Virus record (IMG/VR): IMGVR_UViG_3300036766_000591
Location: 1 to 50,708 of that record
DNA from: a virus
Lineage: Duplodnaviria; Caudoviricetes
DNA length: 50,708 nucleotides
Strand: one strand, 5' to 3'
Under the pieces are notes generated by a model. It saw only the letters and a list, made by a program, of their open reading frames with translations, did no database searches and was not told the origin of the DNA. Both the position numbers and the translations under genes were made by a program. Shown here piece after piece: positions 3,289-19,460 of this stretch. Every line of letters begins with the position of its first letter. Position 1 is the first letter of the stretch.

Positions 3289-3903
3289 GGTTGGCTCTCC
3301 GGTGGCGCGGCCTCGGCGACCGAGACCGCGATGTGCAAGTCGATGCGCGTGATCTCGGCGCAGACAGCGGCCAGCTCCATCACCAGCCTCGCCTTCCGTT
3401 CTTTGGCTTCGATGAGCGCGTCAGGCAGGTTCTTCTCGATCGCTTTCAAGACCGAGCCGATGCCGTTGCCGCCCCGCTCTGAGGTCTCGCGGCGCTCCGC
3501 GTCCCGCACGGTTTTGGGTTCCACGGTGCCGAGGTCGGGCTTGTTCACAGGCCGGCGCCGCGCGCGCGGTCCACCGGCGAGCCCAAGGGGCGCCCGAAGA
3601 GCAGCGCGGCGCCGAGCAGGAGGAGCGTCAAGCCGAGGAGCTTCATTCGGTATCCCACGCGTTGGGGTCGCGCGCCTGCGCGGCGAGCCGGATGCGCTGG
3701 CGGGCGGCAAGGATCGCAAAGTTCTGCGCGAAATGCCGGCCGAACTGGCGGCCAGCCTCGACCAACTCTTGGTGGCGGCGCGCCTTCTCCCACCGCTCGC
3801 GGTGCGCGCGCCAGAAGCCGACGCCCACGGTCCACGCACACACCAGCACGGTCAGCGCGAGATTGACGAGCGCCCAGTCGAGGAGCATCCGGCCGATGGT
3901 CAC
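3285..3903 (-). CDS. Three small genes: 3285-3548, 3545-3646 (hydrophobic peptide), 3643-3903 (membrane protein)
   Basis: Coupled overlaps; hydrophobic segments LLGLTLLLLGAALLF and WALVNLALTVLVCAWTVGVGFW. Confidence 0.6.
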
Positions 3904-5582
3904 GCGGCCTCCAGTCCGAGCGGGATCTGAGCCTCGGCGTCACGGATGCGCCGCTCGGCGATGGCGACATAGGCCGCCTCGCGCTCGATACCCAAGAAGC
4001 GGCGGCCTTCCAGGACGCACGCGACGCCGGTCGTGCCGGAGCCCATGAAGGGGTCGAGGGCGAGGCCCTGCGGCGGGGTGACGAGCCTAACGAGCCAGCG
4101 CATGAGGTCAACCGGCTTCACGGTGGGATGGTGATTGCGACGCGGAATGTCTACCACTTCGCGGCCCGTCATCGGGTTGATTTTGTGGCCTTCGGCGCCT
4201 ATTAGGACCACCATAGCCTCGCCATCCAGCCCCGCCTCGCGTTCGGCGCGGGACGCCTTCGCGCAGTAGAAGAAGCGCGAGGCGCCGCCGGAGTCGCCAG
4301 AGAAGTGACCCGACCTCTCACCCATTCTCTCGCCCATGTCGGTAGCCCGGCCCTGCCGTATTCCTCCGGGCTGCTTTTCGCCGCTCACCAAGTTCCCGCT
4401 CTGCGCGTCGAGCATCGCCGCCGCGTCCCCGTCCAGCACGACGTTCGCGGGCCAGCGGCCACTAAGCGATGCAGATGCAGCTGTCTCGGCTCCAGTGGCA
4501 GACATCCGGTATCCATCATGAGAGTGCTTCGCAGGGTCGAATCGAGTCATTTCTGGCTTCCCCGCAATCCGGCACGCCTCGATGTTCAGCGCCCCCGTGC
4601 CGTGCGCCGCCACGTTCGCCGCCACCGTGCCGATGAGTGGCTTGCGCGCGAGGATGATCGGCAGCCAATCAGGCGAGAGGTTGCTTTCCTCCGGGCCGGT
4701 TGCCTCGTCGGCAAACCTCCCGATAGCAAGCTCGCCCGCAGTAGTGGAGGCGAGTCTTTCGCACTTGGCAACCACGCTTCTGGAAATACCGACCGCAAGC
4801 GACGCATCGGACGCGACGCCACTTGTCGCGCTCAAGTCCGCGGTGGTGAAGGCGTGCGTGATCCGCGATAGGCACGACCGCAAGATTCTCAGGTCGGTTG
4901 TCAGCGCGCTCGCCGTTGCGGTGGTGTACCTGCTCCTGGGGTCCAAGAGGGCGCCCAAGCATCCGTTCAGCGACGACGCGATGCTCAAGAGCCCAGACGT
5001 TAGGAGCAAGTCGGATGAAGGCGTACCCATCTTTGCGGATGAAACGACCGTGCATAGGGCCTCCCTTGTCGTGGGAGCCAATATAGCCAGTTCTTCCTGC
5101 TCTGACAAGGGTTTACGCGCTAGTATCACGGGCTCGTGTGCTGGCTTGAGCGCCGTGCCCCAACCCTTCCACTCGCCGTCGAGGTTCAGCGACTTCGGGA
5201 AGCCGGAGCCGTAGAGCCAGCACAGACAGTCGCGAATCTCCCAGCCCGCATCCTCGATAGCGCAGGTCAGGCGGTGGAAGGTGCGCGTCCCGCCGAAGGC
5301 CAAGAGGTGCGCGCCGGGCTTCGCCACGCGCAGCACCTCAGACCACGTCTCGATGCCAGGGATCTCGGAGTCCCATGACTGGCCCATGAAGCCGCCGCCG
5401 GTGCCGATGCGCGAGCGTCCAGCGGGTGACGCTTCATTGCGCGACGCTTCGCCGCTCCCGCCCTTCTTGTTGGCGGTTAAGGCATACGGTGGGTCACAGC
5501 AAACGGCGTCCACGCTGCCCGGTGCCAGCGTCCGCAGCACGTCCAAGCAATCGCCGTGGATCACCCTCGCACGGTCGCTCAC
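3900..5582 (-). CDS. DNA N6-adenine/N4-cytosine methyltransferase (beta-class motif order) with an in-frame insertion of ~157 aa
   Basis: GDCLDVL, DPPY, GFPKS, GRWPAN, ASRFFYCAKA, HPTVKP, DPFMGSGTTG. GTG start at 5582 overlaps the upstream stop. Confidence 0.92.
   Translation of the reverse strand: MSDRARVIHGDCLDVLRTLAPGSVDAVCCDPPYALTANKKGGSGEASRNEASPAGRSRIGTGGGFMGQSWDSEIPGIETWSEVLRVAKPGAHLLAFGGTRTFHRLTCAIEDAGWEIRDCLCWLYGSGFPKSLNLDGEWKGWGTALKPAHEPVILARKPLSEQEELAILAPTTREALCTVVSSAKMGTPSSDLLLTSGLLSIASSLNGCLGALLDPRSRYTTATASALTTDLRILRSCLSRITHAFTTADLSATSGVASDASLAVGISRSVVAKCERLASTTAGELAIGRFADEATGPEESNLSPDWLPIILARKPLIGTVAANVAAHGTGALNIEACRIAGKPEMTRFDPAKHSHDGYRMSATGAETAASASLSGRWPANVVLDGDAAAMLDAQSGNLVSGEKQPGGIRQGRATDMGERMGERSGHFSGDSGGASRFFYCAKASRAEREAGLDGEAMVVLIGAEGHKINPMTGREVVDIPRRNHHPTVKPVDLMRWLVRLVTPPQGLALDPFMGSGTTGVACVLEGRRFLGIEREAAYVAIAERRIRDAEAQIPLGLEAA
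4669..5055 (-). CDS. HNH endonuclease (HNH_3-like) with a C-terminal zinc finger, nested in another frame of the methyltransferase
   Basis: DGY..., EHRVVAERMLGRPL..EQVHHRNGERADNRPENL, CVAC...YCGRAC; Shine-Dalgarno AAGGGAGG lies 4 nt before the ATG. Confidence 0.85.
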   Translation of the reverse strand: MHGRFIRKDGYAFIRLAPNVWALEHRVVAERMLGRPLGPQEQVHHRNGERADNRPENLAVVPIADHARLHHRGLERDKWRRVRCVACGRYFQKRGCQVRKTRLHYCGRACYREVCRRGNRPGGKQPLA

Positions 5583-7778: not shown

Positions 7779-7807
7779 TTGACTTCCTAGGGCATATGCC
7801 CTATATT
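7779..7807 (+). promoter_or_regulatory. Sigma70-type promoter with an overlapping 16-bp palindromic operator
   Basis: TTGACT(7779)-N17-TATATT(7802); perfect palindrome TAGGGCATATGCCCTA at 7788-7803. Confidence 0.85.
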
Positions 7808-7855
7808 GGTGGTACGGTCAGGGCAATCCCGCCCGACCAGCACCAGGAGCACCAG

Positions 7856-8098
7856 ATGACCCGCACCCCTAGCCTCTCAGTTGAGCGGACCCCCAACGGC
7901 AAAGTCGCACTCGTAGTCCGTAACGCCACCGCCTCGCTGCGGCCATTACTTGACCGCCTCGGGATCGTGCCAGATTGTACGATTACCAACCGGCGCGCGG
8001 TGCTGTGCTCGACACCGGCAGAGCTTGACGCCGCGAGGGAACCACTGCGACAACTGTTCGACGCGCGCGGCCAATGGGTCGGCGCGAGGGAGGGTTGA
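7856..8098 (+). CDS. Hypothetical protein, gene 1 of an inverted cassette
   Basis: AGGAG RBS before the ATG at 7856; 80 aa. Confidence 0.75.
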   Translation: MTRTPSLSVERTPNGKVALVVRNATASLRPLLDRLGIVPDCTITNRRAVLCSTPAELDAAREPLRQLFDARGQWVGAREG

Positions 8099-8101
8099 GG
8101 G

Positions 8102-8518
8102 ATGGTCCGCGATCTCCCGGCAGCGGCGCGCCTCTGCGCCGACGCCATCGCCGCGATGGACGCGGGCACAGTCGAGGTCGCCCGGGTCGCGGTTGGTTGC
8201 GCCCGTCGCGCCCTCAGTCATTGGGGCACCCCTTGGCCTCAGACTGAGGCGCAAGTGGCGCGCCTGCTCGACGCCCCACTGACCACCGACCCCGTCGTGG
8301 CGGCGGCCGAATGGCTGCAACTGGCCGACGACAAGCTGCGCGGTGACGTCGTGACAGGCGACGAGCCCTACGACGTGCGCGAGTATCTGGGACGGGATTA
8401 CCGCAACGTTGGCGAGCCAGAGGGCGCGGTCCTAGCGTGGCTCCAAACGCACCGCACAGCATACCCCCGCACGGCGCGCGCCTACGTGGCAACCGCGCGA
8501 GCGTTGCTCGCCGAGTGA
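8102..8518 (+). CDS. Hypothetical protein, gene 2 of an inverted cassette
   Basis: GAGGG RBS; 138 aa with protein-like composition. Confidence 0.75.
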   Translation: MVRDLPAAARLCADAIAAMDAGTVEVARVAVGCARRALSHWGTPWPQTEAQVARLLDAPLTTDPVVAAAEWLQLADDKLRGDVVTGDEPYDVREYLGRDYRNVGEPEGAVLAWLQTHRTAYPRTARAYVATARALLAE

Positions 8519-8685
8519 CGCCCGTCACGTTGCTCCGCGCCGCGATTGCCGCGTCGGGTCTGTCGGCGCGGCAGTTCGCCGTCCGCGTCCTGCTCCGCGA
8601 CGAGCGCACGGTGCGCCGCTGGCTCGCGGGCGACTCGCCGATCCCGACGCCCGTCGTCGCGTTCCTCGCACGCGAGGGCGGTTAG
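8515..8685 (+). CDS. Small HTH protein, gene 3 of the cassette (probable autoregulator)
   Basis: GTGA overlap; GLSARQFAVRVLLRDERTVRRWLAGDSPIP. Confidence 0.8.
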   Translation: MTPVTLLRAAIAASGLSARQFAVRVLLRDERTVRRWLAGDSPIPTPVVAFLAREGG

Positions 8686-8703: not shown

Positions 8704-8883
8704 TCACCCGTCCTGCCGTTCCTCGGTGCGCACCGCGTCGCACGCCGCCTGCCAGTGTGCGTTGAGCGACGCGTAGGGCCAGATGACCGTCGAGAGGCGC
8801 CCGTGGCGCCCGAACTCCACCAGGACGCCGGTGGCGAGCGCCGTGAAGCGGACGGGGATACTCAGCGACTCAAGGGACGGCAT
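8704..8883 (-). CDS. Hypothetical 59-aa protein in the lysis module
   Basis: MPSLESLSIPVRF...EERQDG, read manually; starts 4 nt after the endolysin stop. Confidence 0.55.
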   Translation of the reverse strand: MPSLESLSIPVRFTALATGVLVEFGRHGRLSTVIWPYASLNAHWQAACDAVRTEERQDG

Positions 8884-8887
8884 CGGC

Positions 8888-9349
8888 TCACGTGGGCACG
8901 TAACAGCCGGCGGCCTTGCGCTCGGCCTGCACGCGGTTCTCCCAGCCGTCGAAGTTCCGGCGCAGCTTCACGCTCTCCTCGCCCAGGTCCACGTAGAACC
9001 GTTCCCGCAGGTTCAGGTACTCGCAGGGATCGTTGTTGCAGGTGCCCAGGACGCCGAGGGCGACATGGGGCGAGGTGTTCACGTAGAAGTCGAAGTGGAC
9101 CGCGTCGAGCGGTTCGGTGAGCGCGGCGCAGCCCGCCGGGACCCAGTAGAAGTCGTGATAGAACCGCTCCACTTCCTGCTCGGTGATCATCCGCACCGTC
9201 TGGTGCGGGAGCTTCCACGCCTCGCGGGCGTGATCGTACGCCTTCTGTGTGACGCCCTTCATCGTGGGGTTGGGGTCGCGCGCGTCCCGGCCATCGTACC
9301 AGCCGCCCTCGTGCGCCAGCGTGCGCTTCAAGGCCGCGGCGAAGCTCAT
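8888..9349 (-). CDS. Endolysin, glycoside hydrolase family 108-like
   Basis: TLAHEGG...DP..TMKGVTQ, FY..FYW, FDFYVN, F.GW.NRV. Confidence 0.88.
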   Translation of the reverse strand: MSFAAALKRTLAHEGGWYDGRDARDPNPTMKGVTQKAYDHAREAWKLPHQTVRMITEQEVERFYHDFYWVPAGCAALTEPLDAVHFDFYVNTSPHVALGVLGTCNNDPCEYLNLRERFYVDLGEESVKLRRNFDGWENRVQAERKAAGCYVPT

Positions 9350-9714
9350 GGCGCCGCCGCCTTCTTCCACGACAGCGCAAGCGCCTGGGCGATCTTGAGC
9401 CCCGCCACGGTGCGATCGGGCGCCGCGATGTAGGCGGCCACCACCGCGATCAGCAGCCCCAGCCCGACCCGCACGCAGTCCACCACGCGCAGCGTATCGG
9501 CCTTGAGCATCAGGGCCAGGGCGCCGTCGAAGACGCGATAGGCGATGATGAGCACGCCGCCCCCGACGCCCAGCCGGACCAGCTTCCCGAGCGCATGGCG
9601 CACCGGCGTCTCGACGGCGAGCGCGGCCTGCTGCTTGGTCTGGTAGGCGGTCGCAGCCTCCACGACCCGCGTCCCGATGGCCTGACGGATCCCGCTCGGC
9701 TTCGGTGCGGTCAC
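9346..9714 (-). CDS. Putative holin (2 TM)
   Basis: Two hydrophobic segments; directly upstream of the endolysin. Confidence 0.55.
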   Translation of the reverse strand: MTAPKPSGIRQAIGTRVVEAATAYQTKQQAALAVETPVRHALGKLVRLGVGGGVLIIAYRVFDGALALMLKADTLRVVDCVRVGLGLLIAVVAAYIAAPDRTVAGLKIAQALALSWKKAAAP

Positions 9715-9977
9715 TCGCCCCTCCGTTGTCGGCCCTTCATGTCGGCCAGCAGTTCGCCCACCTGCTCCCGCGCGTGGGACGTGGCGGCTTCGTGCTGCTC
9801 GATGTCCCGCCGCAGCAACGGAATCTCCGAGGTGTGCCGCTCGATGTTCTCCAGCAACACCTCGACGCGCGCCTCGTGGCCGTTCGGCTTCCCGCGGCCG
9901 TTGGTGACGTGCTTCGCCAGCCAGCCCAGGACCACGCCGACGGGGGCCACGATGGCCGTCACCTCCACCCCGGTCAT
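9711..9977 (-). CDS. Single-TM plus coiled-coil protein (holin/antiholin-like)
   Basis: VTAIVAPVGVVLGWL followed by a coiled coil. Confidence 0.5.
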   Translation of the reverse strand: MTGVEVTAIVAPVGVVLGWLAKHVTNGRGKPNGHEARVEVLLENIERHTSEIPLLRRDIEQHEAATSHAREQVGELLADMKGRQRRGE

Positions 9978-10249
9978 GCGAGCCCCCAGAGGAGCAGCGC
10001 GCCGAGCCCGATGCCCACCTCGCGCTCGGCCACGTCCATAAGCGACCACCCGTTGGCGTCCAGCGTCAATTCATACACGAGACTCAAGGCGGTCGCGAGC
10101 ACGAGCACCGAAAGCGGATGCACGCCGAAGGCGGCGAGCCACAGCAGCCCGCAGGCCAGCGCCGTCGTGAGCAGGCCGCTCAGCATCTCGGTCACGAGCG
10201 AGGGAAGCCCCCACGTCCAGCGCGTTAGGCGCAGCCAGAGGCCATTCAT
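9974..10249 (-). CDS. Multi-pass membrane protein (91 aa)
   Basis: About three hydrophobic segments; ATGA-coupled. Confidence 0.6.
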   Translation of the reverse strand: MNGLWLRLTRWTWGLPSLVTEMLSGLLTTALACGLLWLAAFGVHPLSVLVLATALSLVYELTLDANGWSLMDVAEREVGIGLGALLLWGLA

Positions 10250-11553
10250 ATTTCCTCGACCAGCGCGAACGGCACGCCATACCGCGCGACGGGCATCGCT
10301 TCGAGCGGCGAGAGCTCGCGCATTACCGCCAGGAAACTGCGGCGGTGCAGGTGCGTCGTGTCCTCGGGATCGTGGACGTAAAACAACTGCTTGCCGATGC
10401 CGAGCCGCGCCTGCATGTCGAACGGGCCTTCGAGGGCCTCCGTCTCGGGGAGATTGTTCAGCGCGAACGTCACCGTGCGCCGCTTGCTCTTGAGCTGGTA
10501 GACGGCCGCGCCGCCATCGGTCGGCGTGCGGATCGAGTCGTCTTCCCATCCGTGCTTGAGGCCATAGGCGGCGTTTATGGTGGGCTGGAAGCCGCCCGCG
10601 ATGATGAGCCGACCCACCTGCACGTAGCCTGCGCTGTTGCCCGTGTCGGCGACGTTGGTGCGCCAGTAGCGTGCGGACTGCGCGGCCGTGGTGACGTGGA
10701 GCGCGGAGAGGCTGTAGCCCTCGGCCTCTTCGGCGTCGATGCCCGAGGGCCAGCCTGCGACGTAGCCGGTGTCGTAGACGAGTTGCGCCGTGGCGGCGTT
10801 CCACGCTTGGATGTCGCCGATGTAGAACGCGGCGGTATCAGCGGCGCCCCCGTTGGCGGGAAACACAATCACGCGATTAGTATTCGCTGCGATGACGCCG
10901 GCGGCGAGTGCGGTAATACGAAATCCAGTCCCTTCGGCCACCGTCGAGATAACCGAGCCAAGTGTAGCCGTGACGACAGGCGTGGCGGCACTGAAATCAA
11001 TCGTGACGATTATTCGGTCGGTGCCTGTCGTTTGGTCATTAACTTTGACCACGTGCGCGGCGTAAACCGACGAGCGTTTCACAAGGAACGAGAATACCTT
11101 ATCCGCATTGGCCGTGAATATCAGGCTACGGTAGGTATATTCTGTGACCGCTCCGTCATCGTCCCCGATCAAATCCAAAGGGATGCCGTTGGAGGTGGTC
11201 GCCGCCGCGCTCCGTGTTGGCGTGCCGACATTCGTCCAGTCGGCATCGCCTACCGTCGCCCAGTCAATGATCGGCACGCTCGCCCAGCCGCGATGCCGCA
11301 CCGTGGCCGCCGTCGAGAAGTTGTGGCCCGACAGCGCGAGCAGCCTGACGCTGCGCGCGACGCCGAGGTCGGTGTCGAACTGGGTATCGGCCACGGCGGC
11401 GCTGGAGGAGCGCGCCACTTTCTGGATGTATCTGTCCTGCATGTTGCTCAGGGGCAGCGTCGCGCTCCACGGCGTACCGATCGTGGAGATGACAGGCGAA
11501 TAGGTCACGCCGACGTCACTCCACAGAGGCCATCCTAACAAAACGCTACTCAT
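10246..11553 (-). CDS. Tail protein (distal-tail-like) with an internal beta-rich insertion
   Basis: Phage-tail-like N- and C-termini (ARYWR, GY.QVGRL, RRTVTF.L, final EEI); the middle part has lower GC. Confidence 0.7.
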   Translation of the reverse strand: MSSVLLGWPLWSDVGVTYSPVISTIGTPWSATLPLSNMQDRYIQKVARSSSAAVADTQFDTDLGVARSVRLLALSGHNFSTAATVRHRGWASVPIIDWATVGDADWTNVGTPTRSAAATTSNGIPLDLIGDDDGAVTEYTYRSLIFTANADKVFSFLVKRSSVYAAHVVKVNDQTTGTDRIIVTIDFSAATPVVTATLGSVISTVAEGTGFRITALAAGVIAANTNRVIVFPANGGAADTAAFYIGDIQAWNAATAQLVYDTGYVAGWPSGIDAEEAEGYSLSALHVTTAAQSARYWRTNVADTGNSAGYVQVGRLIIAGGFQPTINAAYGLKHGWEDDSIRTPTDGGAAVYQLKSKRRTVTFALNNLPETEALEGPFDMQARLGIGKQLFYVHDPEDTTHLHRRSFLAVMRELSPLEAMPVARYGVPFALVEEI

Positions 11554-12257
11554 GATCTGCTCTGGCCAACCGTTATGAAGTCAACCTGGAGAGTCCCCAC
11601 GCTCGCCGCCGCACTTTCTTTCCCGATGCGGATGACCGGCTGCAAGGCCAAGGCCGCCACTTGGTCCATGCGGAATGTGGTCGCGCTCGCGACCCGTGCG
11701 CCGTCGATGTAGAAGCGGATCGCGGCCGTGTCGTCTATCTCGATTCTCACAACCGTCCATTGATTGGCGACAAGCGTGACGCCGCTTGCGATGAGGCTTT
11801 GCTCATGCACCGTGTCGTCGCTCTCTAGGGTGATAGCCCCAGACCCATCCAACCTCGCCCAGATGCTTTCCGCCACCGTGTTGACGGCCGCGTTGTGGTC
11901 GCCACAGAGGCCGACGACCGCCACGACGGAGCCGGTCGGCAGCACCGTGAAGCGTACCCGCGCCTCGAAGAACAGCTTTTGGTTGAGCGTGAGTGTACGT
12001 TGATTGCCCCAGTCCACGCCCGCGAGCTGTATCTCGTTCGTCGCGTCGAGCGCCAGGGCATATACGCCGCTCGGCGCGTCCCCGATCATGGCCTCGCCGG
12101 CGCCGTTGGTGTCGCGCACGGTCCAGTGATCAGACTCAATGGGATCACCCAAGAAGTCGTCCTTGAACCACACCGGGCACAGCGCGCGGATCGTCTCGTC
12201 GGTGCTGCTGTCGAAATAATGAAGCCACCCGCCGAAATATCTTGTCTTGAGGCTCAT
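11550..12257 (-). CDS. Virion protein with a ConA/lectin-like beta-sandwich
   Basis: FKDDFLG, FFEARVRF, W..VRIEID...FYIDG, LQVDFI; likely start is the ATG at 12257. Confidence 0.65.
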   Translation of the reverse strand: MSLKTRYFGGWLHYFDSSTDETIRALCPVWFKDDFLGDPIESDHWTVRDTNGAGEAMIGDAPSGVYALALDATNEIQLAGVDWGNQRTLTLNQKLFFEARVRFTVLPTGSVVAVVGLCGDHNAAVNTVAESIWARLDGSGAITLESDDTVHEQSLIASGVTLVANQWTVVRIEIDDTAAIRFYIDGARVASATTFRMDQVAALALQPVIRIGKESAAASVGTLQVDFITVGQSRS

Positions 12258-12266
12258 ACCGACCCC

Positions 12267-12295
12267 TTGCTGGTAGCACGCGAGCGCGCTAGATT
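12267..12295 (+). promoter_or_regulatory. Promoter of antisense HNH cassette 1 (leaderless)
   Basis: TTGCTG-N17-TAGATT; the ATG is 7 nt after the -10 box. Confidence 0.6.
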
Positions 12296-12302
12296 TCCAC
12301 CC

Positions 12303-12443
12303 ATGAAAGCCATGTATTGCAAGCGGGGCCACCGCCTCACGAAAGCCAACCGCGCGCCGGACGGGCGCTGCCGCATCTGCCGCCGGAAGTTCGGCACGAT
12401 CCGCATGCGCGCGTACCGCAAACGGAAGCGGGCCGAGCCGTGA
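12303..12443 (+). CDS. 46-aa zinc-finger peptide (CxxGH...CxxC)
   Basis: MKAMYCKRGHRLTKANRAPDGRCRICRRK...; paralog at 15511-15645; GTGA overlap with the HNH gene. Confidence 0.75.
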   Translation: MKAMYCKRGHRLTKANRAPDGRCRICRRKFGTIRMRAYRKRKRAEP

Positions 12444-13021
12444 CGGGCGTGTTCGTGGCGTGGAATCCGAAGAAGCCTAACGGGCCCGGCTGGATCGAGG
12501 ACGGGAGCGGCTGCCACGTCTGGATTGGGGCCAGAGACAGAAAGGGCTACGGCCAAGTTCGCCAAGGACGCGGCAAGGGGAGGCTTCGATATGTGCATCG
12601 CGTCCGTTACGAACGCGAGATTGGGCCGATCCCCGACGGGCTTCCGCTCGATCATTTCGTCTGCAACAATGGCGCGGGAGGATGCTGTAATCCCCATCAT
12701 TGCCGGCCGGTCACGCGCCGCGAGAACGCACTCCGGAGCGAAAGCCGCGCCGCGACGAACGCCGCCAAGACGCATTGTCCGAGAGGCCACGCCCTTGTTG
12801 GCGACAACCTCATTGCGTCCAAACTGAGGCGGGGCCGTGAGTGCCGGACATGCAACACGAAAAGATGTGCCGAGCGTTACGCCGCCAACCGAGACACCGT
12901 GCTCGCACGGCGCAGGGCCTTGATGACACCCGCCAAACGGGAGGCCAAGAGGGCCAGCGACCGCGCCGCCTACCGCGCGAAACGTCCCGAGGTCAAGCGG
13001 CAAACGAGGTACAGTGAGTGA
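12440..13021 (+). CDS. HNH endonuclease with a C-terminal KTHCPxGH...CxxC zinc finger
   Basis: SGCHVWIGA..KGYG, HRVRYE..IGPIP.GL.LDH.VC...CCNPHH..PVT..EN. Confidence 0.9.
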   Translation: MTGVFVAWNPKKPNGPGWIEDGSGCHVWIGARDRKGYGQVRQGRGKGRLRYVHRVRYEREIGPIPDGLPLDHFVCNNGAGGCCNPHHCRPVTRRENALRSESRAATNAAKTHCPRGHALVGDNLIASKLRRGRECRTCNTKRCAERYAANRDTVLARRRALMTPAKREAKRASDRAAYRAKRPEVKRQTRYSE

Positions 13022-13026
13022 CACTC

Positions 13027-15465
13027 TCATCGCCATAACGTTAGGCTCAGTTGGCGTTTCGATGCATCTGGCTCCAGCCCAATTATGCGGAACGACGGCC
13101 CGCCCGCGAGCGCGTACCGGCTGTGCGTGAGGCTCACCACATCGCCGAGGTCCAGCGTCTCCGTCGTCGCGTGGTCCGAGTCCGAAGGCACGACGATGTT
13201 ATAGCGGTCGCGCTGCACGCCCCGGAGCGCCTGGCGTCGCGTCGCCTCCGTCAAGGCATTGGCCGCGAGGTAGATCAGCGAGTCCTCGACGGTCTGGGGG
13301 GCTAAGGGGTGAGCCAGTTGCACCGTCGTGTCCTCGGCCTTGGCCTCGCGCCACTCGGCGGCGAGGAACGCGCGCCGCGCGTCCGTCACGCCTCCGGCCA
13401 CGCCAGCGACTTGGACCGACCAATTTTTCGCATAACGGATCGTGGAGCGCCAGACCGGAAGGCCCTTCGTTTCATCGTTGACCGGCACGCGCTCAAGCGG
13501 CTTGAGGAGGTCATTGGCCGTGAAGTTGACGACGGGCGTCCCGCTCGGCGCGGTGAACTGCTTGATCCGCATGACGCCCGCGCGGTCGGCGCCCCACCAG
13601 GCGCCCACGGACTGCGCGATCCAATCGAGCACGTCGGCCACGGACCACTCGTCGGTCCCCGACCAGAAGCCCAAGACCGAGGCGTTCGCGGTATCGAGCG
13701 CGGCGATGTCCGCGCTGGAGAACTCTTGCAGCGGCGCGCCGAGCGGGTCGGAGAGCAGGCGCGCGAACATCTGGCCCGCCGTGCGGTCGGAGGCGGCGGC
13801 GCCCTCGGTCACGTCCGCGGTGATGAGCCCGGCGGGCGGGGAGCCGAGGCGGATGTAGCCGCCGGGGAGGTACGCCTTCCACAATCCAGCTAGAGGAGCC
13901 TTTGTATCATCGAGGAGGTCGGCGGCGTCCGCATAGGTCTGCGTCACTAGTCCAGTCGCATAGTAAATCTCTTGCACCTGCCCGATGACCGCAAAAGTAC
14001 TTGCCAGGGGAGTCCACGCGGACCCATCAGCAGATACCCCAATAACGCCGTCGTTATGTCCCGAGAGAAATATCTCCGCTGCGAAGGTGACTGTGACCAC
14101 CGTTGCACTCAGGGCCGTGGTACGCTTTGCCCATGTGAGACCATCGGCTGACCCCCAGAGCCCATCATAAGTTGCCTGCACCCATTGTCCTGCCCCATAG
14201 GCGACCCGTCCCGCCAAGGCGGCGCTAGCGGTGCGGGCGGTCCACGATGCCCCGTCGGTCGAGGTTGAGGTCTTGCCGCTTTGCCCCACCGCTACGAAGA
14301 GAGCGCCATTCCAGTTTACGTCGGCAATGTAGGAAGCGCCGAATTGGCTCGTATGGACGGTGAAGGTGATGAAATCGGTTGTTGAATAGAGCTTGCCCGC
14401 ATCACCGACGAATACCCAAAGGCTGTTGCCGTAAGCCGCCCCAAAAATACCGCTTCCCCCAAAGGGGTTCGGGAGAACCCCGAGAGCGTCGGCTACCATG
14501 GCCCACGTAACCCCATCCGACGAGGTGGCGATCTTGCCGCCGTTTCCGACTGCGACAAAGATACTGTTTCCGTAGGTCACGGCTTGGACATCGGCGGCGC
14601 CCCAATTCGTCAGCGTGCGCAAAGTCCAGAGAGTGCCGTCGGGAGACGAGTAGCATACTCCTCCCTGCGCTATCGCGACGATTGTTCCACCGCCGCAGGC
14701 AAAGCGCAGGTAGTTGCTGCTGATACTATTCAGGGGCGTTATCTGCTCCCACGTCTGTCCATCGGGCGAAGTGGCAGACCTCTGGATCAATCCGCCACCG
14801 TTTCCGTTCGCCAGCCAAGTAGACGAGCCCAGCGCGATTCCCTCATCGTAGGCCGCACCCACGCTCGCCACCGGCCCGTCGTTCACCTGATAGATGAGTT
14901 TGCTGGTGTTCGCGCAGGGCACGCTCACGTTGAGCACGGACCCGAACACGCGCGGTATCGGCTTCCCGGCCAGGTCGTCGGGCGTGCCGTCGAGTCCATC
15001 GGGGAGCGAGTTGGTGCCGCCGTACTTACGAGGCTGGAGCGGGACAGCGAGAGCCAGCATGTTGTCGCGGATTTTCAGGACCAGCGACGATTGCGAGGCC
15101 TCGATCTGTTCCGCTGTCCCCTCAAAGACGGTTTCGAATCCCGATGGATAAGCGGCCCCGACCATGCCACGCCTCACGATAACAGAACGCCCATCCCATC
15201 CATACCCGAGCCACGCATCCAAGGCGCCGTCTTCGTTGATTGCGACAAGGTCGCCGAACGACATCCGCGAGCGACCCGACGTAGTACTGCTGGAGAACAA
15301 GTCTCTTTTCAGTAATACGGGCTGGCGCAGTCGGCCATCATAATATGCGTTAGGCGGGACCTCAGTGGGCCGAGTCGCGAACCCGGTCGTCGAGAGACGG
15401 AGCGCGACGATTCCGACCGTGGCCGGGTCCCAGGGGCGCAGCTCCGCCACGTAGAGATCGGTCAC
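13027..15465 (-). CDS. Large tail protein (hub/tip) with an inserted beta-propeller of S.DG.TW repeats
   Basis: Lies after the tape measure; GKPIPRVFG; repeats SPDGQTW, SPDGTLW, SSDGVTW, STDGASW, SADGLTW, SADGSAW. Confidence 0.8.
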   Translation of the reverse strand: MTDLYVAELRPWDPATVGIVALRLSTTGFATRPTEVPPNAYYDGRLRQPVLLKRDLFSSSTTSGRSRMSFGDLVAINEDGALDAWLGYGWDGRSVIVRRGMVGAAYPSGFETVFEGTAEQIEASQSSLVLKIRDNMLALAVPLQPRKYGGTNSLPDGLDGTPDDLAGKPIPRVFGSVLNVSVPCANTSKLIYQVNDGPVASVGAAYDEGIALGSSTWLANGNGGGLIQRSATSPDGQTWEQITPLNSISSNYLRFACGGGTIVAIAQGGVCYSSPDGTLWTLRTLTNWGAADVQAVTYGNSIFVAVGNGGKIATSSDGVTWAMVADALGVLPNPFGGSGIFGAAYGNSLWVFVGDAGKLYSTTDFITFTVHTSQFGASYIADVNWNGALFVAVGQSGKTSTSTDGASWTARTASAALAGRVAYGAGQWVQATYDGLWGSADGLTWAKRTTALSATVVTVTFAAEIFLSGHNDGVIGVSADGSAWTPLASTFAVIGQVQEIYYATGLVTQTYADAADLLDDTKAPLAGLWKAYLPGGYIRLGSPPAGLITADVTEGAAASDRTAGQMFARLLSDPLGAPLQEFSSADIAALDTANASVLGFWSGTDEWSVADVLDWIAQSVGAWWGADRAGVMRIKQFTAPSGTPVVNFTANDLLKPLERVPVNDETKGLPVWRSTIRYAKNWSVQVAGVAGGVTDARRAFLAAEWREAKAEDTTVQLAHPLAPQTVEDSLIYLAANALTEATRRQALRGVQRDRYNIVVPSDSDHATTETLDLGDVVSLTHSRYALAGGPSFRIIGLEPDASKRQLSLTLWR

Positions 15466-15474
15466 GCCGCGCTC

Positions 15475-15503
15475 TTGACACTAGGCCGGTAGTGGCTTAC
15501 ACT
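15475..15503 (+). promoter_or_regulatory. Promoter of antisense HNH cassette 2 (leaderless)
   Basis: TTGACA-N17-TACACT; the ATG is 7 nt after the -10 box. Confidence 0.8.
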
Positions 15504-15510
15504 TCCCGCC

Positions 15511-15645
15511 ATGAGACGCACGCATTGCAACCGAGGCCACCGCCTGACATCCGCCAACCGCCTAGCAGACGGGCGCTGCGCGAAGTGTCGCCGCAAGTCA
15601 GCCGCGCGATACATGCGCGGGTATCGGAAGCGGGCCGCCAAATGA
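15511..15645 (+). CDS. 44-aa zinc-finger peptide (CxxGH...CxxC)
   Basis: MRRTHCNRGHRLTSANRLADGRCAKCRRK...; paralog of 12303-12443; ATGA overlap with the HNH gene. Confidence 0.75.
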   Translation: MRRTHCNRGHRLTSANRLADGRCAKCRRKSAARYMRGYRKRAAK

Positions 15646-16151
15646 CGGGCGTCTTCGTGGCATGGAGCCGTTATCGCAATTCCCCTGGCTGGATCGAGGA
15701 CGGGTCGGGGTGCCATATCTGGATCGGCGCGCGAAGCCAAGACGGCTACGCCCACGGATGGGATGCCGAGAACCACTGCAACGGCGCTATCCATCGCATT
15801 CGCTATCGGCGCGAGGTCGGCCCGATTCCCGTCGGCATGGAACTCGACCACTATGTTTGCAGCAATGGTGCCGGGGGCTGCTGCAACCCGCACCACTGCC
15901 GGCCGGTGACGCCTCGCGAGAACTCGCTCCGTAGTGGGGCGCAATCTTCGCTCAACGCCGCGAAGACGCATTGCCCGCAGGGCCATCCGCTGTCCGGGGA
16001 GAATCTCATCAAGTACTATGTCGAGAGACGCGGAATGCGATGCTGCCGAACCTGCGGCCAGCAAGAACGGCGGCGCTACAAGGCGGCACACCGCGAAGAG
16101 CGCCGCGTCAAGGCTCGGGCATACCGCCTCGCCCGCCGAAAGGCCGCCTAA
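15642..16151 (+). CDS. HNH endonuclease, paralog of 12440-13021
   Basis: MTGVFVAW...PGWIEDGSGCHIWIGAR, LDHYVC.NGAGGCCNPHHCRPVT, KTHCPQGH. Confidence 0.9.
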   Translation: MTGVFVAWSRYRNSPGWIEDGSGCHIWIGARSQDGYAHGWDAENHCNGAIHRIRYRREVGPIPVGMELDHYVCSNGAGGCCNPHHCRPVTPRENSLRSGAQSSLNAAKTHCPQGHPLSGENLIKYYVERRGMRCCRTCGQQERRRYKAAHREERRVKARAYRLARRKAA

Positions 16152-16154
16152 CCT

Positions 16155-16478
16155 ATGCGCTACCTGCTGCTTGTCCTGCTCTTGGCGGGCTGCTATGCGG
16201 ACCCGACCGCGCCGCCCGCCGTCCAGCCTAACGCGGCGCCCGCGATTCTGTTTACGAATGGCTGCGGCTTCACGGCAGGGTTCAGCCTGTTCGTGGATGA
16301 CGCCGCGCCGGAAATGTTCTTGATCGCGGACAGTGGCGCCGTCGAGAAGCGCGTCCTCGCCGGACGACACGCGGTCCAGTACATCGCCTTCGACGGGAAC
16401 GCCAAGCCGCTGGCGGTTCGTCGCGACTCCCTGACCGTTCTCGGCCCGACGCCCTACATCATGCGCTGCGCGCCGTAG
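16155..16478 (+). CDS. Predicted lipoprotein (moron)
   Basis: Signal peptide II with a lipobox: MRYLLLVLLLAG-C. Confidence 0.8.
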   Translation: MRYLLLVLLLAGCYADPTAPPAVQPNAAPAILFTNGCGFTAGFSLFVDDAAPEMFLIADSGAVEKRVLAGRHAVQYIAFDGNAKPLAVRRDSLTVLGPTPYIMRCAP

Positions 16479-16480
16479 GC

Positions 16481-18835
16481 TCATACCTTCAGCCCTTCCA
16501 GCACGAGGGCCAGCTTCCGCGCGTTGTCCTGCGCCTCGGCCCGGAGTGCGACAACCTCCTCCGTCAACTGCGTGAAGCCCGCCAGCAGTAGGGCGCTCTG
16601 CTGCTGCGACTCTAGGACGAGCGGATCGTCCAATGCCGTCTTGGGCGGCTTCCCGTCGAGCGGCGGGGGCGGCGGGAAGCCCGGGGGTGTGCCCCCGTCC
16701 TTGGGCGGCTTGAGGAACACGCTCGTGTTGTCCTGAATCGCGACGAGCGCATCCAACATCTGCTGCTGGATGCTGCGCTGGCCCTCGAAGATCTTGGCGA
16801 TGGCGTCCGTGTCGGCCAGGACGCGCGTGAAGTCCACGGCGTACCGGCCGCCGGAGGCGTTCACCGCCCGCGACGCCGCGAGGAACGCCTGCGCCACCTG
16901 CGGCAAGCGGCCCGCCGCCGTCTGGTCCCCGGTCTGCGCCTGCGCCAAGACGGCTTCGTACTGCCGCCGTGCCTCGGCGAGTTGCTGAATAGGCGAGAGC
17001 GTCGTGAGCGGCCCGGTGCGGAGCGAGGTCTGGAAGTCGCGCAGCGAATCAATCGTGGTCGTCAGGCCCGCGATGGTCGCCTTGATCTTGTCGGCCGCGA
17101 AGCGGATCGCCTCGGCGCGCTGCACTTCCACGAGTGTCGCCCGCTCCTGGGCGTCGGCACCCGCCAGCACGGCATCGGCATACTCGCGCTGCTGCTGGAG
17201 CGCGAAGGCCATCGCGTCGGCTTCGGCGTCATGGCCCTGGGCGCGGAGCATCCGCACGGCGAGGTCTTCGATGCGCTGCTGGCGCAGGATGGCCGCCTCT
17301 TCGCGCAAGTGTATGACGCGGATGGCTTCCAGAAACGCAATCTCGACAAGGCGGCGTTCGTATTCCGCCTGCGCGGCAGCGTTGGCCGCGCGGTTCGTAC
17401 CCTGAAAACCTGGACCGACGCCCGCGCGCACGGCAGCGGCCTCCGCACGCAACCGGGCCGCGTCGTCATGCGCTTGGCGGATAGCCGCCTGGAGGCCGGT
17501 ATCCGTTCCGGCCACGGCGCGGCGGAATGCATCGAGGTCATCGGTGAATTGCTTCAGCGCCTCAGCCTGGAGTCGCCGTGCCTCGCGAACGCGCGCCGCG
17601 CTACCGAACAGGTCACTGACGAATCCGCCGATAGCGTTCCCCACCAGCGCGAGCCCGCCCGCGACCGTGCTGAAGCCGACGAGCGACTGAAGCGCCGAGC
17701 CACCTATCGCGCCACCAATCCCGCTCCCGCCCGGCATGGTCCTGTCGCCTCCAGGAGCACCGCCACGCGATCCGCCCGTCGCGGCCTTGGCTGCCTCCTG
17801 CTCCGCGGCGATGAGCTTCATGGCCGCGACGACGTTCGCGTTCGCCTCCTCACGCCATAGCCGCAGCGCCTTCGCCTGGGCTTCGAGGGAGGCCGTCAGT
17901 TCCGCGTTCGCGCGGAGCTGGAGCGCGGCGGTCGCCGTGGCCGTGTTGCGAAGGCTGGCGTCGAACATCTCCAGCGCCCGACGGTGGGCTTCGATGCCCT
18001 CCTTCGCCTGCTCGTGGGCCGCAGCCGAAGCGTGCTGGGTTCGCGCCTCATGGCCCGCCGCCACGTCGAGCGCGTTGATCGCGGCGGTCAGTCGCGTGTT
18101 GTCTTCGGTCAGTCGAATGACATCCGCGGCATTAGCCAGCGCGCCGACGTTGGCGCCGACGCGGAATCGCGACGGGTCGGTGATGGAGACATCCGTGCGA
18201 GCCTGGGCTTGCGCCAATGCCGCACGATTCACCGCCAACTGTACCGCCAGGAGGGTCCGATTCTTGGCAAGCAACTTCTCGACTTCGTCGTTCGTATCCC
18301 CGATCGCCCCATTGAGGAGTTGCCAGGCGGCGGCAAAGGCCGCGAGGCCCGACAGGATGCCGACAAGCCAGGGATTCCCCAGCGCGAACACCTGAAGCCG
18401 GGCGGCGGCCATCGCGATGCCGCCAATGCCGCGCGAGGTCACCAGGGCCGCCGCCTCGGATGCGACCCCGAACGCCTCAAACCCCTGGGCGCCGCGGCGC
18501 GCATCCATCGTCACCGCGCGCAGGCCCCGGTTCACCTGGTTCCCCACCGCGGCCAGCCGCTCCTGTGTCTTGCTCGTCATCTCGGTTGTGGTCGCCAGCG
18601 AGGCCATGTCGGCCTTGAGGGTGCGGAGCCCGGCCGCGTATTCCACTTCCGTCATCCGGCCGATGCGGTAGGACTGGGTGAGTGTCGTCAGTCGGCTTTG
18701 GAGTGCGGTGACGGCGGCCGAGGCCGCCTCCATCTGCTGCGCGGTGCCCGTGACGGCGCGCTGCGCCCGTTGCATCTCGGTGTGAAATGCCGTGGTCTCC
18801 GCAGCAATCCTCACCATCAGCGTGGCAGCGATCAT
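16481..18835 (-). CDS. Tape measure protein
   Basis: 784 aa, Ala-rich and helical; N-terminus IAATLMVRIAAET..F; follows the tail chaperones. Confidence 0.88.
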   Translation of the reverse strand: MIAATLMVRIAAETTAFHTEMQRAQRAVTGTAQQMEAASAAVTALQSRLTTLTQSYRIGRMTEVEYAAGLRTLKADMASLATTTEMTSKTQERLAAVGNQVNRGLRAVTMDARRGAQGFEAFGVASEAAALVTSRGIGGIAMAAARLQVFALGNPWLVGILSGLAAFAAAWQLLNGAIGDTNDEVEKLLAKNRTLLAVQLAVNRAALAQAQARTDVSITDPSRFRVGANVGALANAADVIRLTEDNTRLTAAINALDVAAGHEARTQHASAAAHEQAKEGIEAHRRALEMFDASLRNTATATAALQLRANAELTASLEAQAKALRLWREEANANVVAAMKLIAAEQEAAKAATGGSRGGAPGGDRTMPGGSGIGGAIGGSALQSLVGFSTVAGGLALVGNAIGGFVSDLFGSAARVREARRLQAEALKQFTDDLDAFRRAVAGTDTGLQAAIRQAHDDAARLRAEAAAVRAGVGPGFQGTNRAANAAAQAEYERRLVEIAFLEAIRVIHLREEAAILRQQRIEDLAVRMLRAQGHDAEADAMAFALQQQREYADAVLAGADAQERATLVEVQRAEAIRFAADKIKATIAGLTTTIDSLRDFQTSLRTGPLTTLSPIQQLAEARRQYEAVLAQAQTGDQTAAGRLPQVAQAFLAASRAVNASGGRYAVDFTRVLADTDAIAKIFEGQRSIQQQMLDALVAIQDNTSVFLKPPKDGGTPPGFPPPPPLDGKPPKTALDDPLVLESQQQSALLLAGFTQLTEEVVALRAEAQDNARKLALVLEGLKV

Positions 18836-19460
18836 CGGGCCTCGTCTAGCTTGGCAACGGCGGAGTGGCGCGCGGCGCGGGCGCGATCCGCCTGGTCGTC
18901 GCGCTCGAGGTCCTTATGTTGGAGCCGGAAGTAGGCAGCCCACACGCCGAGGTCCCGTGCGTCTATCTCGCGCGCCAGCCGACGGAAATGCGGCTCCCCA
19001 CATTCGGCGCACACGCGCAGCAGGAGCAGGAGCGTCGGCTGCCCTAGGAGTTTTTTTCCTGCTCCTCCATCTCCTCGATGTCGCCCCGGCCAATGCGGTT
19101 CAACGCGCAGGCGGCCTCGAAGATCCGCTCCAGTGCCGCGGCCGATTTCCCGCCCAGCGCCAGCACGTCAACCTCCGAGAACAACGGGGCGCCGGTCGCG
19201 TCCACGCAGGCCCGGATCACCAGATTGACGCGGAAATTGACCTTGTCGTTCGGGTCAATCTGGATGACCCCGGAGCGGTCGCGGCGCCGAATCGTGTTCG
19301 ACCGCTCGTAGGCCATTTTCTCATCGGCCTTCAGCACCTTGACCAGCACGGCGCCGCCCCATTCGGGGACCTCCACGCGCTGGGTGATGAGGTCCTCGCG
19401 GGCGAAGATCGCCTCGCGCGTGAGCAGCGACGCCGACTCTTTCGCTTCGCCTGCCGCCAT
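18832..19460 (-). CDS. Tail assembly chaperones G (19044-19460) and G-T, made by a programmed -1 frameshift
   Basis: VEVPEWGG motif. The slippery GAA AAA AAC just before the G stop (~19050-19058) puts the -1 frame (KLLGQPTLLLLLRVCAECG...) into ORF 18832-19014. Confidence 0.85.

Follow-up and report, generated by a model that had tools for sequence, protein, structure and literature searches.

A candidate pass-through open reading frame on the back of an endonuclease cassette inserted into a coupled tail gene junction of a GC-rich phage

The viral sequence analysed here (Caudoviricetes; IMG/VR record IMGVR_UViG_3300036766_000591, taken over its full 50,708 nucleotides (nt) and hereafter called the window) has a G+C content of ∼68% and carries nearly all of its genes on the minus strand. 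In its tail operon a set of plus-strand genes, cassette 2, lies backwards between the tape measure gene and a large tail gene, and judged by the relatives that lack it this cassette is an insertion into a junction at which those two genes were coupled. Cassette 2 is crossed on the minus strand by a single 340-codon open reading frame (ORF), bridge ORF 2, which overlaps the stop codon of the tape measure gene at one end and the start codon of the tail gene at the other. On sequence grounds bridge ORF 2 is certainly an antisense shadow in origin, and it does not look like a gene for a functional protein. We give even chances to the reading that it is nevertheless a translated pass-through ORF, along which ribosomes would be handed from the tape measure gene to the tail gene across the insert.

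Bridge ORF 2 (15462..16484, minus strand) starts with ATG in the ORF listing. Its start codon (16484–16482) overlaps the TGA of the tape measure gene (16483–16481) in the sequence ATGA (16484–16481), the minus-strand text of the tape measure 3′ end being aag gtA TGA. At the far end, the GTG of the tail gene (15465–15463) overlaps the TGA of bridge ORF 2 (15464–15462) in the sequence GTGA (15465–15462), and the minus-strand text there is gcggcGTGAccgat. The frame holds no stop codon, compared with 11 and 14 in the remaining two minus-strand frames of cassette 2. An earlier note on this DNA, in which the bridge was called a relay, had described the 340-codon ORF with its ATGA and GTGA ends, and both overlaps were read from the sequence as it had them. 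The cargo that it had listed, namely a lipoprotein, an HNH protein, a zinc-finger peptide and a promoter, was likewise found on the plus strand beneath the bridge. The features of cassette 2 and its two flanking genes are, by position:

13027–15465, minus strand: tail gene, 812 amino acids (aa), GTG start; phrog_8917, E 6.7e-92
15475–15503, plus strand: promoter-like site TTGACA-17-TACACT, predicted to be sigma-70-like, matching 10 of 12 consensus positions
15511–15645, plus strand: gene for a Cys/His zinc-ribbon-like peptide, 44 aa; weak match to positions 165–210 of phrog_826, E 7.6e-4
15642–16151, plus strand: HNH endonuclease gene, 169 aa; phrog_826, E 3.3e-31
16155–16478, plus strand: lipoprotein-like gene, 107 aa; the product starts MRYLLLVLLLAGC, read as a lipoprotein signal and lipobox
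16481–18835, minus strand: tape measure protein gene, 784 aa; phrog_973 (tail length tape measure), E 1.6e-6

The HNH and lipoprotein-like genes share one plus-strand frame, and bridge ORF 2 reads the same triplets reversed, so that the caution about codon alignment attached to the original description was well placed. From the coordinates, 278 of its 340 codons are codon-aligned antisense, and the peptide region is crossed in an offset frame.

That cassette 2 was inserted is indicated by the corresponding junctions in relatives. The question had been raised of whether phages without the cassette couple the tape measure and tail genes directly by a 4-nt overlap, and the eight relatives in which the junction could be read, none of which has a cassette, join the two genes directly. 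Four show an RTGA overlap (GTGA in L061 and L064; ATGA in L065 and L005), three a 1-nt overlap (TGATG in L067 and L003; TAATG in L001) and one a 1-nt gap (TGAcATG in L066). Of the relatives found by the tape measure gene, L061 is the closest, with 52% tape measure identity over 185 aa and a tail protein N-terminus that is 45% identical, and its junction reads caGTGAcgg. The full-length 812-aa type of tail gene is found in L064–L067 at 39–46% identity. As the relatives without the cassette are joined directly, the closest of them by GTGA, we take the GTGA at 15465–15462 to be ancestral: on this comparison it is a relic, the old tape measure stop lying on the tail gene GTG, and not a new feature.

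Searches for the cassette itself were consistent with its absence from relatives. None of 80 related tail-gene loci has the HNH, peptide or lipoprotein genes (tblastn, E <= 1e-4), and a codon-score gene caller gave no credible antisense gene inside the tail operon in the 39 distinct high-GC loci among these 80. The cassette was absent from relatives found by the tail gene (viral, genome and metagenome contigs, and an alignment), by the tape measure gene and by an alignment of the LamG gene that lies further downstream; the LamG gene as a single-sequence query found no relatives. A nucleotide search of phage records with positions 13027–18835 gave no match.

The arrangement occurs a second time on the other side of the tail gene, where cassette 1 contains the following features:

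12258–13026 (approximate): cassette 1, between the tail gene stop and the LamG gene, with a promoter-like stretch, a zinc-ribbon peptide gene and an HNH gene
12303–12443, plus strand: zinc-ribbon peptide gene, 46 aa
12440–13021, plus strand: HNH gene with GTG start; phrog_826, E 4.9e-35; Pfam HNH_3 at 28 bits, above the cut-off
12254–13036, minus strand: bridge ORF 1, with an in-frame ATG at 13030; no PHROG family

The ATG of bridge ORF 1 overlaps the tail gene stop (13030–13027, cgATGAgag), and its TGA overlaps the ATG of the LamG gene (12257–12254, ggtATGAgcc); the other two minus-strand frames of cassette 1 hold 8 and 4 stops. The earlier statement that cassette 2 repeats the geometry of cassette 1 thus holds for the overlaps at both ends. 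Its further statement that the cargo differs was overstated, as the pairs of zinc-ribbon peptide and HNH genes are paralogous: the HNH proteins are 55% identical, 26 of the 44 residues of the cassette 2 peptide are common to the two peptides (including synonymous changes at conserved residues), and the cassette DNAs align from the border as far as the point where the C-terminal tails of the HNH genes begin. The peptide ATG lies 46 nt from the start codon of the downstream gene in both cassettes, and in cassette 1 the peptide and HNH genes overlap in a GTGA. The differences between the cassettes are confined to the lipoprotein gene and the far ends. Since both cassettes carry these paralogous pairs, the shared geometry is partly inherited.

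A comparable junction was seen in L064. Its 223-nt gap between the tail and LamG genes, the junction occupied by cassette 1 in the window, contains a decayed antisense HNH-like ORF (phrog_59, E 7.8e-4; the features at this site lie at 8774–9118 minus and 8783–9004 plus). A same-strand ORF with the composition of non-coding DNA (G+C at third codon positions, GC3, of 0.51) spans the gap; it begins 5 nt past the tail gene stop and ends in gcATGA on the start of the next gene. Because it is likewise covered by a same-strand ORF ending on the next start, we count this gap on the side of the pass-through reading.

How far an open, in-register frame across both cassettes could be a product of chance was estimated in several ways. 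The plus strand of the window, being antisense to almost all genes, was used as an empirical null: a stop-free stretch of 340 codons was found at 3.7% of positions in a given frame and 11% in any of the three, and one of 259 codons at 6.5% and 19%, respectively. Synonymous resampling, in which the cargo proteins were held fixed under three codon-usage tables for 3000 trials, left the frame open in 0.5–2.9% of cases for cassette 2 and 5.6–25.8% for cassette 1; the largest single penalty came from the peptide region (0.12–0.14). From the resampling and empirical rates, the joint frequency of two open cassettes is ∼0.002–0.02. The register at the far end contributes a further factor of 1/3 per cassette, and the chance of both frames being open and in register becomes (0.037/3) x (0.065/3), or ∼3e-4, a post hoc and model-dependent figure that is good to an order of magnitude at best in either direction. 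The length of bridge ORF 2 alone is therefore ordinary; on these estimates a double, in-register open frame is improbable by chance.

The codons of the cargo genes were also examined. The three codon-aligned genes (the HNH genes of cassettes 2 and 1 and the lipoprotein gene) contain no CTA, TCA or TTA at all, although A is the last base in 9.2% of the remaining four-fold codons across all five cargo genes. The probability of zero antisense-stop codons is 0.225 for the HNH gene of cassette 2, 0.51 for the lipoprotein gene and 0.40 for the HNH gene of cassette 1, or 0.046 for all three jointly. One CTA and one TCA do occur in the offset peptide gene. Across this gene the offset frame remains open only because the codons before both of its tyrosines end in a purine (CGA-TAC and GGG-TAT); among the 30 window genes, 67% of tyrosine codons are preceded by C or T.

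The geometry suggests a sequence of events and a use. The cassette, comprising promoter, peptide, HNH and lipoprotein genes, would have been inserted backwards into the 4-nt stop/start overlap and would have split it, leaving the tape measure side with its stop and an orphaned start (ATGA) and the tail gene side with its GTG and the old stop (GTGA), and the frame between the split halves would since have been kept stop-free and in register. With an overlap at each end, the sequence predicts a hand-over of ribosomes from the tape measure gene to the bridge and on to the tail gene GTG: those ending the tape measure gene would restart at the overlapping AUG, translate 340 meaningless, Arg/Ala-rich codons, terminate within GUGA and begin again on the tail gene. 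The act of translation, rather than its product, would be what matters, and the paralogous cassette 1 would work likewise on the other side of the tail gene. The presumed benefits are that stoichiometric coupling is kept and that ∼1 kb of otherwise naked late messenger is shielded from Rho and nucleases. Translation, re-initiation and selection are here what we infer; the insertion, its geometry, the antisense nature of the bridge and the improbability of the double frame are read or calculated from this DNA and that of its relatives.

Termination–reinitiation classically takes place where a stop and a start codon overlap (PMC6728339, with T4 examples in PMC2988022). Ribosome-binding signals were scored in kcal/mol as the match to a generic anti-Shine-Dalgarno motif, for which the window median is −6.25. 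The ATG of bridge ORF 2 has GGAAGGG 8 nt upstream, a match of −6.0 kcal/mol that is near this median. The GTG of the tail gene, with −3.7 kcal/mol, has one of the weakest matches in the window; in relatives this gene depends on overlapping the tape measure stop directly. The LamG gene scores −7.1 kcal/mol, and the ATG of bridge ORF 1, at −1.9 kcal/mol, has no match.

Several observations weigh against use of the bridge in translation, and the main rival explanation is that bridge ORF 2 is purely a by-product, an ordinary shadow ORF of GC-rich coding DNA whose ends are relics of the split overlap. The tail gene would then be translated from the AAGAG supplied by the cassette, and late transcription would cross the insert unaided. 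We consider this a serious alternative and put it somewhat below an even chance. The composition of the ORF is that of an antisense strand: its G+C at codon positions 1, 2 and 3 is 0.76, 0.55 and 0.67, with GC1 exceeding GC3, and its codon score is −34.8. Its product, with an isoelectric point (pI) of 11.4, 17% alanine and 16% arginine, has no Pfam or PHROG family match and no homologues. That it is antisense to supported genes, has antisense composition and matches no family is why we regard it as a shadow ORF in origin.

Such shadows are common in this DNA. TTA, CTA and TCA make up only 49 of the 8446 codons in 26 confident window genes; 9 of the 26 have no antisense-stop codon at all, and in 8 the antisense strand stays open for 300 codons or more at a stretch. 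The 11% of 1020-nt antisense-strand stretches that are open in some frame point the same way, and in L005 the tape measure gene lies under a shadow ORF of 1254 aa. The ends of the bridge can also be accommodated. An insertion that spares both genes inevitably puts a stop at one border and a start at the opposite one, so that neither 4-nt border motif needs a special explanation. The codon before the stop ends in A in 12 of the 30 window genes, hence ATGA-type overlaps are apparently common in this phage and the A of the left-hand ATGA could be a relic of one such overlap; the GTGA is ancestral, as described above. The cassettes are paralogous, which makes part of their common register inherited. 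A Shine-Dalgarno-like sequence stands before both downstream genes (AAGAG, 6 nt before the tail gene GTG, and AAGGGG). The GC skew over the cassette is near zero, and its transcript is therefore not obviously a C-rich entry site for Rho. The sequencing runs that contain the sequence are three of sediment DNA and none of RNA. Furthermore, the cassette pattern is known from one genome only and was defined after being seen, and no close relative with the cassette was found.

HNH relatives elsewhere, surveyed in viral contigs with a G+C of at least 0.60, bear on both explanations. Six backward copies lie between minus-strand genes, and by inspection four of them (L134 (= L023), L171 (= L036), L145 and L151) lie under one operon-strand ORF. 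The other two, L162 (= L032), with four stops, and L048, with one stop, are unbridged, which makes a bridge not obligatory. An automatic rule gave three open of five, as it counted in L151 a codon that coincides with the upstream stop and classed L032 as mixed. Most of the genes flanking the backward copies have PHROG support; the flanks of L162 matched no family and L048 was not scanned. Of 45 forward copies, 20 have an aligned opposite strand with no stop codon, counted from the start of the match to the stop, and the difference in openness between backward and forward copies gives one-sided Fisher p values of 0.13–0.42. The HNH family therefore offers no significant support, at the level of these sequences, for a habit special to backward copies. 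In L048 the single stop is followed immediately by a start (4192–4195), giving abutting ORFs 4193..4501 and 3851..4192 across the insert. The isolated phages with HNH homologues comprise 91 records, and the two minus-strand matches inspected (WIVsmall and CMP1) are co-oriented with their neighbours.

What the by-product explanation leaves as coincidence is that two cassettes are open, that the register fits at both ends of each, and that the lipoprotein gene is in frame with the HNH gene. With ∼70% DNA identity between them, the synonymous sites of the paralogues have probably turned over, which would make their openness nearly independent. Moreover, the by-product explanation must have the tail gene translated from one of the weakest Shine-Dalgarno matches in the window.

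A true protein-coding gene on the opposite strand, with a functional 340-aa product, has in its favour only the open frame and the gene-like coupling at both ends. It is very unlikely, given the lack of a family match, the GC1 and codon score noted above, a pI and an alanine and arginine content as expected from GC-rich antisense, the fact that every residue is dictated by the cargo genes opposite, and the absence of the ORF from all relatives of the operon. An assembly artefact, by which a chimeric metagenome assembly would have joined the cassette into the tail operon, comes to mind as the record stems from a sediment metagenome; it is less probable still, since contigs of run X1 cover 9000–16307 and 16409–16733 without mismatch and cross both cassette borders, and both flanking genes are preserved to the base at each of two separate insertions. 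X1 is possibly the source sample and so not independent, and X2 and X3 give only short pieces of relatives. No trustworthy contig in X1–X3 joins across a cassette, the joints listed having sides of 20–28 nt or lying elsewhere.

Returning to the pass-through reading, the bridge may be compared with several known systems. Shadow ORFs are a familiar feature of GC-rich DNA, in which the codon-aligned reverse strand stays open as TTA, CTA and TCA are rare. Bridge ORF 2 resembles them in being codon-aligned antisense, with GC1 above GC3 and no homologues, and differs in that it spans three genes (one of them offset) and a promoter, has exact ends and occurs twice in one operon. With termination–reinitiation coupling (PMC6728339 and PMC2988022) it shares the same 4-nt overlaps at both ends and in the junctions of the relatives, whereas the middle cistron here would be no gene, and would consist of meaningless sequence from the opposite strand of a mobile element.

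Cassette 2 itself recalls the free-standing HNH homing endonucleases treated in PMC2988022, and phage morons, in being a self-contained unit with a promoter-like site of its own and a precise insertion between genes that abut in relatives, and the lipoprotein is a moron-like cargo. In contrast to those elements, the cassette opposes the operon, has no terminator-like site and contains a separate zinc-ribbon peptide gene, and two paralogous copies, known here from sequence alone, flank one tail gene. A moron is defined by having both its own promoter and its own terminator. Zinc ribbons beside HNH domains are described in PMC3592412.

[quoted passage not shown] In both cases the host reading frame would be passable across the HNH insertion without splicing. 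The ShiLan case differs in lying inside a gene and in that gene's own frame, with the HNH on the same strand by the wording of the abstract, whereas the HNH gene of cassette 2 is intergenic and on the opposite strand, and the pass-through would be a separate, coupled ORF in another frame. A literature search, with subscription journals outside its coverage, gave no description of a translated ORF that bridges a backward endonuclease gene.

The cargo of cassette 2 shows some further features. A promoter scan by consensus matching only gave two sites in 4.6 kb, compared with 0.8 ± 0.9 in shuffled sequences, and the site in cassette 2 has an aligned counterpart in cassette 1. The putative −10 element of cassette 2 ends 7 nt before the peptide ATG, and its −35 region contains on the other strand AAGAG, the Shine-Dalgarno-like element of the tail gene. 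Cassette 1 shows a similar layout from −10 to ATG, as read from the alignment of the cassettes. The zinc-ribbon peptide genes of both cassettes have no Shine-Dalgarno match (−1.5 and +0.4 kcal/mol; 15503–15511 and 12295–12303). Given this lack of a match and a peptide ATG 7 nt past a −10-like hexamer, the cassette messages, from promoters that are themselves putative, may be leaderless.

The stop of the 44-aa peptide gene overlaps the start of the HNH gene (ATGA). A longer ORF with a GTG start (15492..16151) was considered as the HNH gene and rejected, the ATG at 15642 overlapping the peptide stop as in cassette 1. The HNH protein of cassette 2 matches Pfam HNH_3 at 23.5 bits, slightly below the 24.8-bit cut-off. 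The lipoprotein-like gene is in the same plus-strand frame, its stop lies 2 nt from that of the tape measure gene, and its coding signature is strong (GC3 0.86; codon score +33.3). No relative of it was found in viral contigs, and a scan limited to consensus matching gave no terminator-like site after it.

Among the genes around the cassettes, the tail gene has its GTG start backed by the N-termini of homologues (MTD or MAITD). Its product contains a repeat-rich insert of ∼300 residues (residues ∼213–509), with a weak match to Pfam DUF6242, that is present in L064–L067 and missing from relatives of ∼500–560 aa; it may be a receptor-binding or glycan-binding propeller. Upstream of the tape measure gene are a tail assembly chaperone gene (phrog_344; 19044–19460) and then a 60-codon ORF (18832–19014) that overlaps the tape measure start by 4 nt. 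It is after the chaperone gene that the frameshifted G-T chaperone extension usually lies.

The gene downstream of cassette 1 is:

11550–12257, minus strand: LamG/ConA-like gene, 235 aa; Pfam Laminin_G_3, E 4.2e-8

Its start was placed at ATG 12257, most homologues being listed at ∼235 aa and aligning from residue 26 of the long ORF; for the same alignment, GTG 12332 was rejected as the start of 11550..12332. In only four of the 80 tail-gene loci (L179, L184, L185 and L189) does a LamG gene stand between the tail gene and the next gene, and in most of the 80 (L179–L258) the tail gene is followed directly by a homologue of 10246..11553. By this distribution the LamG/ConA-like gene is accessory. 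Records of Mesorhizobium, Methylocystis and Acetobacteraceae contain homologues of it as well, a hint that the host is an alphaproteobacterium.

The window has just one other plus-strand island, at 7796–8685 (for example 8102..8518, codon score +29.8); it lies between minus-strand genes, is not bridged by any single minus-strand ORF and may represent a regulatory module where two operons meet. When 55 high-GC loci were screened automatically for antisense islands, only three candidates emerged, one of them solid (L029); this is unbridged and is probably a regulatory module.

An 11-mer, GGTATGAGCCT, occurs as a direct repeat at 16487–16477 and 12260–12250 on the minus strand, at the tape measure stop and the LamG start, and brackets the block formed by cassette 2, the tail gene and cassette 1. 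The 8-mer ATGAGCCT is found in the window at these two repeat sites only (1.05 expected for the count alone), and seven matching bases beyond the ATGA are unlikely by chance, at an estimated ∼1e-4. Recombination between the 11-bp repeats would bring the tape measure gene directly against the LamG gene. A broader proposal, which we hold to be unlikely, is that backward cassettes are ‘two-way readable’ elements in which selection on the cassette as a whole, cargo gene and promoter included, keeps the operon strand open and in register with the split overlap, so that they invade coupled operons without polar damage. In that case the two cassettes of this phage, which form with the tail gene a block bracketed by the repeat, may also move that gene between phages as one unit.

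If the bridge is unused, the locus still illustrates cleanly that a coupled gene can be imitated by a split stop/start overlap together with GC-rich codon usage. If the pass-through reading is true, an essential coupled operon can take in a selfish gene in reverse orientation and stay unbroken, the meaningless but translatable frame of the insert handing ribosomes between the genes of its host. The avoidance of stops on a non-coding strand would then be an added layer of selection in the evolution of mobile elements. It would also explain the exactness of some ‘shadow ORFs’, and would caution those who annotate genomes against taking such ORFs either for genes or for noise.

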